Below, piece after piece: positions 10,994 through 59,415 of a stretch of 64,000 nt of DNA. The DNA is from Eledone cirrhosa (taxonomy: Eukaryota): the NCBI GenBank assembly GCA_964016885.1, contig OZ024760.1, positions 11,160,001 to 11,224,000 of the forward strand. Direction: 5' to 3'. The translations under genes were made by a program, and so were the position numbers. The notes under the pieces are model-generated. The model was not told the DNA's origin, ran no database searches, and saw nothing but the letters and a program-made list of their open reading frames with translations. Within the stretch, counting starts at the first letter, position 1. The number at the start of each line of letters is the position of its first letter.

Positions 10994-11185
10994 TGAAAAA
11001 GTATGACCCCGACGGCAGAGCTCAAGCCGTTTCGACGGCTATTTCAATCCAGAAATAGCCGTCGAAACGGCTTGAGCTCTGCCGTCGGGGTCATACTTTT
11101 TCCTATTTACCACTCTACTACCCTAAGTAATGAGTACTCTGGTGCGTTATGGTCCATCTGGTTCCTTACCACAATTCCTTTGTTA
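10994..11185 (+). mobile_element. Family B fold-back element (about 110-bp perfect hairpin plus tail) in (TA)n
   Basis: Perfect inverted repeat 10995-11102; other copies at 24375-24450, 55530-55620 and 58540-58733. Confidence 0.85.
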
Positions 11186-11436
11186 TATATATATATATAT
11201 ATATATATATATATATATTTCTATTTCGTTTCTGAATTTGTTTAGCAAGATTCTTTATCTGAAAACGTGTGTTGAAACCGATATTGTTATACTTTGGGAG
11301 GGTCATGTTGCCAATAAGAAACACACGCACCAGTCGCTTTCACTTCAATTTATTATAATAAATTTATAATAAATTTATAAATTTATAAATTTCCGGTTGG
11401 TTGGTTGGTTCCACAACCAGATAGTTGTTTATATAT

Positions 11437-11481
11437 AGTCATAGTTCTTTCGTCACACACTCTGTGACCTCTTCAGTGACT
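11437..11481 (-). ncRNA. Minimal hammerhead, family H
   Basis: Minus strand: agtca-CTGAAGA-ggtcacagagtgtgtgac-GAAAgaaCTA-tgact; degenerate paralogue at 31345-31385. Confidence 0.7.
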
Positions 11482-11777
11482 GGAGATTCCTTTCTTTGTT
11501 TCTGTGTCTCTCCTTTGTTCTGTCCTACGCCATTTTGTTTCTGTGTGTGCCACAAATATATATATATATATATATATATATATTAACTAGCTCATTGTTG
11601 CGTCGATAAAATGAAGTACCAGTAATGCACTGGGTTCTATTTAATCGGCTTTCCCCTCCCCCCAAATTGCTGACATTCTGCCGATAGTAGAGAACATTGT
11701 TAATATTTATTAAACATTTTTGACACATACCACACCCCCACCGCACCTCACCCTATTTCACTTCCTCCTCCTCCCCA

Positions 11778-12675
11778 TATATATACATATATATATGCAT
11801 ATATATATATGCATATATATATATGTATATATATATATATGTGTGTATATATATGTATATATATATATGTGTGTATATATGTATATATATATATATATGT
11901 GTATATATGTATATATATATATATATATATATATATATGTATATATGTATATATATATGTGTATATATGTATATATATATGTGTATATATGTATATATAT
12001 ATGTGTATATATGTATATATATGTATATATATATATATATATATATGTGTGTATATATGTATATATATATATATATATACATATATATATATATATATGT
12101 ATATGTTTATATATGTATATGTTTATATATGTATATCTGTATATATGTATATATATATATATGTATATGTTTATATCTGTATATATGTATATATATATAT
12201 ACATATCTGTGTGTATATATATGTATATATGTATATATATATATATATATATATATACATATATATATATATATATACATATCTGTATGTTTATATGTGT
12301 ATATATATGTATATATGTATATATATATATATATATATACACATATCTGTATGTTTATATGTGTATATATATATATATATATATATATACATATCTGTAT
12401 GTTTATATGTGTGTATATATATATATATGTATATGTTTATATATGTATATATATATATATATATATATATATATATATATATATATATACATATCTGTAT
12501 GTTTATCTGTATATATATATATATGTATATGTTTATATATGTATATATATGTATGTATATGTATATATATGTATGTATATGTTTATATATGTATGTATTT
12601 ATGTATATATATATATATATATGTATGTATATATATATATATATATATATATGTATGTATATATATATATATATC
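11778..12675. repeat. (TA)n/(TATG)n compound microsatellite
   Basis: Direct inspection. Confidence 0.95.
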
Positions 12676-12699
12676 ATCATCATTATTTATTAATTACAT

Positions 12700-12890
12700 A
12701 GGTGGATTGGCAGTATCGGTAGAGGGTCAGACACCATACTTTGACGCATAGAATTATGGCCCTTGCCAATCTGAGTTCAAATCCCGCCGAGGTTAACTTT
12801 GCCTTTCATCCGTACACGGGGGTCGATAAAATAAAGTACCAGTAATACACTGGATAATTGCTGGTCTTGTGCCAAAAGTAGAAATAATTA
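12700..12890 (+). mobile_element. tRNA-derived SINE, Nin/Deu-domain-like, full length
   Basis: A box tggcagtatcgg, B box gagttcaaatcc, core ctttgcctttcatcc..ggggtcgataaaataaagtaccag, (att)n tail. Confidence 0.9.
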
Positions 12891-13403
12891 TTTATTAATT
12901 ACTTAGACGAAAATATTCTAGATTATACAAAAAAGTGTAGCGACTTATTTAAAATAAATTAACCTCTTGAAATTCTTTACACACACCCGACCTTACCTCA
13001 CCCTATTCCTCTTCCTCGCCCACCTCCTTTTCTTCCTCACCCTCCTCCTTTCCTTTCCCTCTCCTCTCCTCATCCTTTCCCTCTCCTCTTCTTCAATGAT
13101 TCCTTTATTATATCAATGCACTGCATTGTTTCAAGATTATAATTGATATTCAAATTCTCCATTTTTAACTTATTCAACATCACGCGACACCTTTTACATA
13201 AATGAAGGGTTTTCTATTTATCTCATTGTATCCTCAAGTCAGTCCAACATTTATTTTTAGTTGTCATTTCGCCTTCCTCTGTTATATTTCAACCAACATC
13301 TAATACATTGCATTCAATTCATTATATTCTAAATTATATTATTATATAGCCATATGTTAACTTTCACACAATAATTTGTTATATATATATATATATATAT
13401 GTG

Positions 13404-56140: not shown

Positions 56141-56844
56141 AGAGAGTGAGTGAGAGGGGGGGGGTTCACATAGACAAGCAGAGTAGAAGAAATTACCCCT
56201 TCAGTTTCCTATTGAATTCTTCATCTCCTTAGTTGAAGCCAAACTGCTTACAAATTTCTATCCATAGAAACATGTAATTGTGTTGCTTCTCCCTGTAGCG
56301 CTAGTTTATAATGTGTATTGTGCTGCTTAATAAGAAAGGAATATGTGAAGATTTTGTACAAGTATTGTCTGGATGAACAGAGAAATTTTTCATTGAGAGA
56401 GAAAAAGGATGATCAGTTCTATTACAGATCTCATTGAATTTGATTGTGGTTTATAGGATTTCCTGTTGTGAAGCAATTCTTATAAAAACGACGTGAAGAC
56501 AACATATTTTTAAAACCTTCATCTTGGATTTTTATTTTTCATTTTTTATCTTTTGTCGGTAACGGATTTGCTCGAGATTTTCAAGTGAATATGGAACATA
56601 AATAGATAAACTTACATGGAAATGAATAGCTAGAATAATATTAAAATGATAGTAGAAAGAAACATTAGATGTTTTGACGTAGGCATAACTCCTTTGATCC
56701 TTTAATAAGCTGAATGTGGATGTGGCGATTGTTTTAGGAATTTCGACGCCATTTTTTTTTTACAATGTATAGAAATATAATGAGATAATATCGTGTTGTG
56801 AGAATGTGGACGAATATAAAACTTACTGTAGATGTAACCTTGAA

Positions 56845-57440
56845 ACCTCACGCAGATCTAAACACATCACCTAACCTAAACACCTGACCTGACCTTAAAC
56901 ACCTGATCTCATCTTAAACACCTCACCTGATATAAACACCTCACGTGGTGTAGACACACCACGCAACCAAAACGCTTCACGCTAACAAAAACTTCACGGA
57001 AAAATCCCAATTTTACGCAACTAAATACCTCACGCAAACTAAACGCCCCATGCAATTTATAACACCTCACGCAACCTTAACACTACACACATATTAAACA
57101 CTTCACGTAACTTAAACACATTGTAACCTAAACACTTCCTGTATTCTAAACATTTCACCTGACCTAAACGCATCATGCAAACTAAACAATACGCGAAACT
57201 TAAACATTTCACGGAATCTAAACACCTAAAACAACCTAAACACTTCAAACAAACTAAACACCTCACACAATCTCAACACCTCACACAACCTTAAACACTT
57301 CAAACAGACTAAACACCTCACACAAATTAAAAGCCTCGTGTAACCTAAAAACCTCACATAACCTAAACACTTCACGCACTCTAAACATTTCATGCGATCT
57401 AAACACTACATGCAACTTAAAAACCTAAATACCTCAAACT
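56845..57440. repeat. Diverged 18-bp minisatellite (taaacacctcacgcaacc-like)
   Basis: taaacac recurs about every 18 bp. Confidence 0.85.
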
Positions 57441-58539
57441 ACCAGGTAAATAGTGGAAGTTTTATTTGATATTTTTGGATCTAATATATCCAAATATTCT
57501 TTCAAATCAATCAATATTTATACCAAACACGTCATCGATAGTTAGATCGATCTATCTTTAGAATAGACTAGATTTTATTTGCACTACAAATATATCATGA
57601 AATATATTACCTTTTAGAATCACAGCTACAGTTGAACTGTTTGGTTTCCTTACTTTCACAATATATTGTCATTTAAAATTACAGGCAGTGTGCTGCCGTC
57701 GGGCTTCCATAATTTACAATATATTGTCTTTTAGAAGTACAGGAACTGCCCAAATTACGGGCTTCCATAAATTTTTCATTTATCTATCTATCTATCTATC
57801 TATCTATCTATCTATCTATCTATCTATCTATCTATCTAATATACCTGTATGTAAACTCCCCATTTGTATTTGTCCTCTTCTTTTGTGCCCTTGTGGCTAA
57901 TAAAGAAATCTCTCTCTCTCTCTCTCTCTCTCTCTCTCTCTCTCTCTCTCTCTCTCTCTCTCTCTCTCTCTCTCTCTCTCTCTCTCTCTCTCTCTCTCTC
58001 TGTACACCTATCTGTACATCTATCTAACTATTTATCTAATTATTTGCCTGTCTATCTGTCTGTCTCTCTCTCTCTCTCTCTCTCTCTCTCTCTCTCTCTC
58101 TCTCATTCTATGTATATATGGTTAAAATAATATATTTCTTCATTGCACTGTGTTGTTTGCTATGGTATTTCTGTTTATTTTTACACACACACACTCACAC
58201 ATTTATGAAGAGAGTGAGAGAGAGAGAGAGAGAGAGAGAGAGAGAGAGAGAGAGAGAGAGAGAGAGAGAGAGAGAGAGAGAGAATTGCGAGACCAAACCA
58301 CAGACACAATACCCATTATACCCATTATACCCATTATACCCATTATGGCTGCCGTAGGAAAAGTTAATAAAACGACGAGTATGAATACATAACCAAAATA
58401 ACAAGAGTTGATATATATATATATATATATATATATATATATATATATATATATATATAATTTATCTAATATATATATATATATATATATATGTGTGTGT
58501 GTGTGTGTTTATATATATATATAATATATTTATGTATAT

Positions 58540-58733
58540 AACGAAGGAAATGTGGTAAGGAACCAGATGGACCATAACGCACCAGAGTACTCAATACTTA
58601 GGGTAGTAGAGTGGGTAATAGGAAAATGTTTAACCCCGACGGCAGAGCTCAAGCCGTATCGATGGCTATTTCTGAGTCCAGAAATAGCCCTCGATACGGC
58701 TTGAGCTCTGCCGTCGGGGTTAAACATTTTCAT
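58540..58733 (-). mobile_element. Family B fold-back element
   Basis: Palindrome 58622-58731 plus a tail matching 11103-11185. Confidence 0.85.
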
Positions 58734-58749
58734 ATATATATATATATGT

Positions 58750-59015
58750 AATGATCAAATGTTAATAAGATTCAGTGATTACTCAATGAATATAGTTTTA
58801 CAATAGATTCAAAGCACTCAACAGAAATTTTCTGGAGTTATTGATATTATTCAAAATATTAATAAATGAAGACGTTCACATAATCAAAATATATGTTTTA
58901 TTATATACATTTCGGAGGTAATAAAAAAAACAGCACAGTACCGCCGAAATGTATATAATAAAACATATATTTTGATTATGTGAACGTCTTCATTTATTAA
59001 TATTTTGAATAATAT
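58750..59015 (-). mobile_element. Family F fold-back element (about 77-bp near-perfect arms)
   Basis: 58844-58920 pairs with 58939-59015; GAAATGTATATA follows the central stem. Confidence 0.8.
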
Positions 59016-59071
59016 ATATATATATATATATATATATATATATATATATATATATATATATATATATATAT

Positions 59072-59415
59072 GTAGGAGGTGAGTTTTATTGTAGCACAAT
59101 AAAGCAATGCAAATATCGGACAAGTAGCACTCAACAGTTTATTGGACTGGAGTATATATAAGAAGAAATTAAAAGATGGTTAAAAAAGTTCCATGTATTT
59201 TATTATGCGCATTTCAAAAACAAATATCATCCAGGGACGATATTTGCGTTCTCATCAGATGAAATAGGGAGACATAATATTAAGCTTCATATCATGTCTC
59301 CCTATTTCATCTGAAGAGAACGCAAATATCGTCCCTGGATGATATTTGTTTTTGAAATGCTCATAATAAAGTACATGGAACTTTTTTAACCATCTTTTAA
59401 TTTCTTCTTATATAT
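59072..59415 (-). mobile_element. Family E fold-back element with HHRs at 59196-59266 (-) and 59303-59373 (+)
   Basis: Minus arm: tatttcat-CTGATGA-long stem II (gcaaatatcgtcc/ggatgatatttgt)-GAAATGCGCATA-ataaaata; about 120-bp arms. Confidence 0.85.

Follow-up and report, generated by a model that had tools for sequence, protein, structure and literature searches.

We analysed a 64,000-nt stretch of the Eledone cirrhosa genome (contig OZ024760.1 of assembly GCA_964016885.1, positions 11,160,001 to 11,224,000; hereafter the window), in which Penelope-like elements (PLEs) inserted in (TA)n microsatellites carry a short bulged hairpin downstream of hammerhead ribozyme motifs. The genome around it is 3.0 Gb in size and rich in microsatellites. 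A first-pass annotation made from the sequence had listed ten matches to the pattern ACTC-N(10-20)-TGAGTRC; all ten were found at the given coordinates and strands, with no further pattern matches in the window, compared with a mean of 0.35 and a maximum of 2 in 100 shuffles. For family C the positions were right, but the minus-strand copy reads GAGTAC instead of the GAGTGC noted. Nine of the ten sites lie within ten two-ended insertions, and the signal placed by that annotation in the tail of the pseudo-long terminal repeat (pLTR) does belong to PLEs, though it is only the first (HP1) of two hairpin copies, the second of which we call HP2.

Two insertions belong to family B. The first (10996..11189) lies in (TA)n with a tailless inverted arm on the left, a tailed end on the right and the 3′ half of the hammerhead only; its HP1, recognized by pattern match, the covariation set and folding, is at 11112..11137 (+) with upper stem UACU/AGUA. 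The second (58535..58730) is tailed on the left and tailless on the right, with HP1 at 58587..58612 (-). A tail-only copy of family B also lies between (TA)n tracts at 55526..55615 (-), the last base of the motif in its HP1 being mutated. Family A is tailless left and tailed right at 30885..31078 (hammerhead core 30959 (+); HP1 31025..31045 (+)), while at 39421..39835 the left arm is tailed, judging by its sequence, and the other is tailless (cores 39548 (-) and 39775 (+); HP1 39462..39482 (-)). Family C is represented by 35732..36127, tailless left and tailed right (core 35935 (+); HP1 36042..36063 (+)), by 36209..36513, tailed left and tailless right (cores 36388 (-) and 36409 (+); HP1 36277..36298 (-)), and by 46852..47169, tailless left and tailed right, which was absent from the earlier list and has a mutated HP1 at about 47080-47102. 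The family D insertion (45417..45684) is tailless left and tailed right, with core words at 45483 (-) and 45553 (+) and HP1 at 45625..45646 (+), upper stem GUCC/GGAC. Families F (58751..59015; HP1 58814..58838 (-), upper stem CAG/CUG) and E (59070..59416; cores 59258 (-) and 59311 (+); HP1 59127..59153 (-), upper stem CAGU/ACUG) are both tailed left and tailless right. The remaining HP1, at 45913..45934 (+), belongs to a seventh family, named G, with an atypical arrangement and a doubtful hammerhead. An inverted piece of this family at 45995-46050, right of the tailed end, stops inside the HP1 loop, off the usual pattern.

Genome-wide, the pattern was matched 138,091 times, against 9,117 for the reversed pattern used as control. 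The core word CTGANGA was found 55-85 nt before the motif at 15,744 matches (21 in the reversed control) and 86-116 nt before it at 14,748 (26 in the control), although one motif may count in both distance bins. Positional enrichment downstream of hammerheads, set beforehand as a point on which the motif could fail, therefore holds across the genome. End-to-end alignment of the families, the other such point, was not seen: with the motif cut out, 0 of 42 flank comparisons among the seven window families were convincing (best p=0.02 among the 42 tests). In the window, a same-strand CTGANGA core lies 66-136 nt upstream of seven of the ten sites, and the two family B copies and the family F copy retain only the GAAA (3′) half of the hammerhead because the inversion junction falls inside the ribozyme.

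The hairpin is not a general feature of DNA that follows a hammerhead. The motif follows 21 of the 82 hammerhead-like cores detected in 464 kb around and including the window; most others stop in microsatellite before HP1 would start, and a few families are without the motif altogether. A search of the Neptune-type PLE of this genome, which also has a hammerhead and (TA)n targets, gave no hairpin. This family, which served as a negative control, is present at 11220-11500 (-) and about 31130-31400 (-) of the window and at locus L244, with a pLTR hammerhead and, in the open reading frame (ORF) of L244, a CX4CxxC linker and GIY-YIG. Another hammerhead family (9030 (-), 31721 (-) and 32714 (+) of the window) ends about 90-100 nt past the cleavage site with no hairpin, and no linked ORF was found in 12 of its loci. 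A tandem hammerhead repeat of about 468 bp on contig G000:C21, lying upstream of the window at about 100-102 kb and again at 199 kb, has no hairpin at the seven cores seen and resembles a non-LTR retrozyme.

The motif carriers are Hydra-clade PLEs. Reverse transcriptase (RT) and GIY-YIG fragments lie upstream of family B ends, and a near-complete family B copy (L071) comprises an inverted tailed arm, then a 5′ pLTR that is partial and contains the motif, an ORF, and finally a 3′ pLTR ending just before the motif. RWR, an RWK-type motif near the N-terminus, is present in the ORFs of B, C and F (a frameshift blurs the single E copy read), DKT stands instead of DKG in B, C, E, F and one further family, and a second family B copy (L072), read by eye, has a CxCX5C linker, CxxC, CxH, no CCHH, and GIY-YIG at the C-terminus. 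The text of PMC8557442 gives the same marks for the Hydra clade: RW[KR], DKT, the CxCX5C linker, and CxxC and CxH around endonuclease E and N. It also describes the (TA)n targets that we found for the motif-bearing families, the pLTR hammerhead, the inverted 5′-truncated partner and the tail at one end, though with tails of 30-40 bp as against the 55-99 nt HP1-HP2 interval found here. ORF identity is about 40-45% between B and C, E or F and 48-66% among the latter three (overall about 38-77% among the families with an ORF), so these families, earlier called unrelated, are relatives with unalignable untranslated regions (UTRs). No ORF-linked copies of A or D were found in a search of the genome, and hairpin and insertion form together suggest that A, D and G are Hydra members as well. 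The hammerheads of A, C, E and F satisfy a structural filter and are putative ribozymes, known from sequence, while the D and G cores were rejected by it and have the core words alone. Longer family B copies have a core with the U3-A8 variant, which has been described (text of PMC4209133).

The family B ORF had no Pfam match, and neither single-protein locus searches in metagenome and viral contigs nor protein alignment in viral contigs returned anything. For the family B 5′ UTR, no RNA data set containing it was listed. A fold search with a Hydra-clade protein model ranked TERT first (E 2e-8, with a low TM-score of 0.32), a model-based ranking that would simply confirm a known kinship. Several Hydra-type PLE contigs (L164-L181) sit within bacterial genome assemblies from animal hosts and are most likely host DNA contamination.

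Comparison of copies revealed that the ACTC/GAGT pairing recognized earlier is real but incomplete: the conserved unit is a bulged stem-loop consisting of RCUC, a covarying upper stem, a 2-nt UY/UA bulge and GAGY-RC. For this comparison, 95 foreign loci were fetched via alignment of homologues, and 85 distinct hairpins (67 foreign, 18 from this genome) were anchored regardless of pairing, four short ones being dropped. The three pairs above the bulge are formed in 81, 67 and 61 of the 85 hairpins, compared with shuffle means of 61.8, 37.3 and 33.6, counts reached by 0 of 2000 shuffles, which ignore kinship. All four Watson-Crick types occur at the second and third positions, and registers with a 1- or 3-nt bulge gave no pairing excess in the same set. 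The first lower pair is G-C in 68, A-U in 11 and A-C in 6, and in other genomes it is mostly G-C; the stem is followed by an RC that is conserved but does not pair. In isolation, 84 of the 85 fold as drawn. The hairpin starts 38-61 nt past the predicted hammerhead cut at 32 of 62 foreign cores, against 2 of 56 upstream control windows; of the remaining 30 cores, a part of which was inspected, several belong to tailless ends or to other elements. A further family on G000:C21 (two sites upstream of the window, at about 154 kb and 186 kb, and a third about 45 kb downstream) is invisible to the ACTC pattern because the first pair of its HP1 is G-C.

Full-length elements carry the hairpin twice in the 5′ UTR, between hammerhead and ORF, the two copies lying 55-99 nt apart. 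In this genome the double hairpin occurs in families B, C, E and F at 78-99 nt, and a search for the second copy gave 359 matches versus 6 in the control. Among the foreign loci we detected 26 double hairpins in 25 of 95, spaced 55-83 nt apart, with a Hydra ORF start next in 25 of the 26; foreign HP2 mostly ends 13-56 nt before the first ATG. The second copy is kept in elements about 32-43% identical in protein to family B. The first-pass annotation had also proposed a check of PLE consensuses from other phyla, and in these the hairpin recurs in part: of six new Hydra consensuses in File S7 of the published supplement, read by eye, Hydra-1_Ajap has both copies and Hydra-2_Ajap and Hydra-2_Amil have HP1, while Hydra-1_Amil and Hydra-1_Crog have a partial hairpin and Hydra-1_Obim none. 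Those with a clear hairpin derive from coral and sea cucumber, the consensus with both copies being from sea cucumber. Some family B insertions (L191, L192, L198, L205) carry additional units that extend from hammerhead stem II across both hairpins into the ORF start, as if RT had jumped back onto RNA downstream of HP2. At L012, L021 and L081 the 5′ junctions lie at -24, -23 and -27 from HP1, near the predicted hammerhead cut (about -25), and may record cleaved templates.

Insertion ends were mapped over the same 464 kb, where families B, C, E and F gave 139 matches, 116 of them ending in microsatellite. These 3′ ends fall into two classes: 115 of the 116 lie either at -11..+1 of HP1 (tailless) or at -9..0 of HP2 (tailed). 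Ends of the same family in foreign loci fit this as well, five lying at -2..-4 of HP1 and six at -1..-6 of HP2, once rows with the L171 reference that match (TA)n alone are disregarded. The ends map just upstream of the hairpins and not downstream, so the 3′-end processing role once proposed for the motif finds no support. HP2 sits just beyond the tailed end and is for that reason missing from the window; lying outside the inserted DNA at that end, it must act from template or donor.

Two-ended insertions nearly always have one end of each class. Among 58 of them, 56 combine a tailed with a tailless end, the one-sided extension of an inverted insertion that also marks the canonical PLE tail; tested against free choice, this gives P=6e-15. 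A further 45 ends have no partner, some of those from family C being false matches in AT-rich repeats, and the count could be biased if perfect palindromes have been lost. Both ends were clear in nine of 16 ORF-selected family B loci, and all nine have a tailed plus a tailless end. The HP1-HP2 interval, the probable extent of the tail, is 78-99 nt here and 55-83 nt in foreign loci, outside the canonical tail length of 30-40 bp. The two arms share subfamily letters, with a mean of 3.0 versus 7.6 mismatches (15 of 19 pairs scored). In the nine long insertions the ORF-bearing arm is the tailless one in four, the tailed one in four and equal in one, which fits two primings. Simple fold-back of a single cDNA was rejected, as it cannot yield a long arm that is tailless in some insertions and tailed in others.

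We suggest that each hairpin probably docks the RT-endonuclease on the RNA and sets the RT start a few bases upstream, a judgement that covers the two-copy stem-loop, docking, one priming site per target strand and a tail equal to the HP1-HP2 interval taken together. The role in RT or endonuclease recognition raised by the first-pass annotation is accordingly graded the most likely function of the signal. In this scheme a read-through transcript would carry both hairpins, folded in the sense strand, and the bound protein would nick a (TA)n target on both strands. Each of the resulting 3′ ends could then pair with a short UA run some 4-9 nt upstream of a hairpin, one at HP1 and the other at HP2, and two cDNAs would be copied from the same template and joined head to head. 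The outcome would be an inverted repeat with a tailless end set by HP1 and a tailed end set by HP2, the tail being the interval between them. The simplest reading, a putative one, has two protomers, one per hairpin. More speculatively, tail and inverted repeat might together be the footprint of programmed twin priming, with each hairpin seating one protomer of an RT-endonuclease dimer on one strand, other PLE clades using paired signals of their own, and the hairpin being a minimal portable RT-positioning RNA of telomerase's sister enzymes; we regard this wider proposal as possible but doubtful.

Several observations weigh against docking at paired hairpins. On their own the hairpins fold weakly: seven window copies give -3.6 to -8.6 kcal/mol with z of -0.65 to -2.98, and the minimum free energy structure contains both hairpins in none of four longer 5′ UTR folds. 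Wobble counts for the folding strand are mixed, as G-U over A-C in the upper stem (16 to 6) leans toward the sense strand while the first lower pair is A-C six times and never G-U. The 85 hairpins contain near-duplicates and one mis-anchored row, to whose relatedness the shuffle test is blind. Thirty-six foreign ORF starts have sufficient DNA upstream; just 28 of these show a strict hairpin no more than 95 nt away, several of the others being one-base variants or 5′ truncations. Where the upstream DNA could accommodate two hairpins, 18 of 28 starts carry both. In families A and D the second-copy search gave 6 and 5 matches, none a true HP2. Junctions lie in TA microhomology, which blurs exact offsets by several bases. 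Finally, in the PLE Poseidon PAc of Anolis both start sites are used on either strand (text of PMC11167929).

Another explanation is that the hairpins act on DNA or an antisense template, folding in single-stranded cDNA, donor DNA or antisense RNA and marking endonuclease cuts or polymerase stops that resolve an insertion intermediate. This predicts the same two end positions, and the six A-C first lower pairs would be G-T on the opposite strand. Endonuclease resolution is the origin given for the tail in the text of PMC8557442, PMC11167929 recounts that tail DNA is required by the D. virilis endonuclease, and antisense templates have been proposed in the text of PMC3846280. Both hairpins nevertheless share orientation and offset to the ends, which fits one reaction done twice, the long arm may be either one, and the upper-stem wobble count favours the sense strand; moreover, a CpG-type change affecting one of two copies accounts for at least one A-C case (L098), and another is a junction (L171). 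We therefore consider action on DNA or antisense RNA unlikely, though it deserves more weight than the explanations that follow. A plain double-stranded DNA site was rejected, given the 9-19 nt spacer with its complementary upper stem.

The hairpins could instead serve some other 5′ UTR task, such as translation control, ribonucleoprotein capture, ribozyme folding or RNA stability, with the ends set only by the nearest UA-rich single-stranded patches annealing to (TA)n. The position of HP2 shortly ahead of the first ATG would suit such a task, and the bases upstream of both hairpins are indeed AT-rich: TAT or ATA is present in 39 of 50 and in 27 of 34 cases. AT-richness extends over the whole of these UTRs, however, while the ends gather at the two hairpins alone, and the presence of one end of each kind is left unexplained, making this improbable. 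Least credible, and in our estimation very improbable, is that the motif is a neutral relic of common ancestry: the ORF-bearing families are all Hydra-clade relatives, but their flanks do not align, the upper stem covaries through all four Watson-Crick types, and the motif is kept twice in elements as distant from family B as those described above. A splice-site or branch-point reading was rejected by inspection, as neither requires a covarying stem.

The PLE hammerhead, the inverted arm and the one-sided tail have all been described previously (PMC4209133, PMC11167929, bioRxiv 10.64898/2026.07.22.740005, PMC8557442 and PMC3846280, as far as their accessible text goes). A literature search found no description of the hairpin, its duplication or its link to the ends, within a reach that left out most subscription papers, Repbase reports, figures and bioRxiv supplements. 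In the accessible text of PMC8557442, "stem-loop" does not occur in the main text, nor do "hairpin" and "stem-loop" in the supplement, and 11 Naiad and Chlamys matches to three motif words in that supplement do not look like the terminal hairpin by eye. Rfam gave no matches at gathering score in six loci with both hairpins, and an E-value scan of the window gave only microsatellite-driven matches among the best 150 of 384 listed. The first-pass annotation knew of no description of the motif, and the hairpin pair is apparently an undescribed cis element of a known retroelement clade.

Poseidon PAc provides the closest parallel: according to the text of PMC11167929, RT initiates internally at two sites equal to the tail ends, both strands are nicked and extended, a dimer is predicted, and RNA is required that lies over 50 nt downstream of the starts. 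Compared by description, it differs in belonging to another clade and in having its sites within the ORF, in an AC-rich stem-loop; in the accessible text, the binding element is not identified and no duplicated signal is reported (PMC11167929). By analogy, the proposed mechanism fits the Poseidon PAc in vitro data. In L1 twin priming, reportedly set out by Ostertag and Kazazian in 2001, a single RNA is primed by both strands of the target, which yields an inverted insertion. The second site there is said to be opportunistic and the two parts not to overlap, whereas here both sites have fixed places beside a repeated hairpin and one pLTR region is present in both arms. Two separately primed cDNAs are likewise said to be made in L1, and a long arm that may be either one fits with this, the priming itself being our inference here. 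Small structured RNAs position an RT on its template in telomerase RNA elements, hepadnavirus epsilon and the R2 3′ UTR. Those are known as single positioning elements and ours is a tandem pair tied to two DNA strands, so the likeness is one of role, and homology is not claimed.

How PLEs choose their RNA and where the one-sided tail of their inverted insertions originates have long been open questions, and the accessible text of the in vitro study locates two start sites and not the signal (PMC11167929). A short covarying hairpin pair near the insertion ends makes the origin of the tail directly testable by a few mutations. The hairpin is also a DNA-level marker for Hydra-clade elements, with about 138,000 strict copies in this genome against about 9,000 for the control, and a candidate RNA handle for a (TA)n-targeting RT that is sister to telomerase.

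The window has other repeats beside these insertions. By eye, several of its families show a second inverted repeat of variable sequence between HP1 and the tailed end, for example at 36090-36108 and 59085-59105. A clustered repeat with A- and B-box-like words (15300-15500, 43170-44300 and 46400-46660) is probably a tRNA-derived short interspersed element (SINE), also judged by eye. A run of 200 N lies at about 18650-18850, and at 46680-46750 a decayed family A-like HP1 with its tail is nested among SINE-like repeats.

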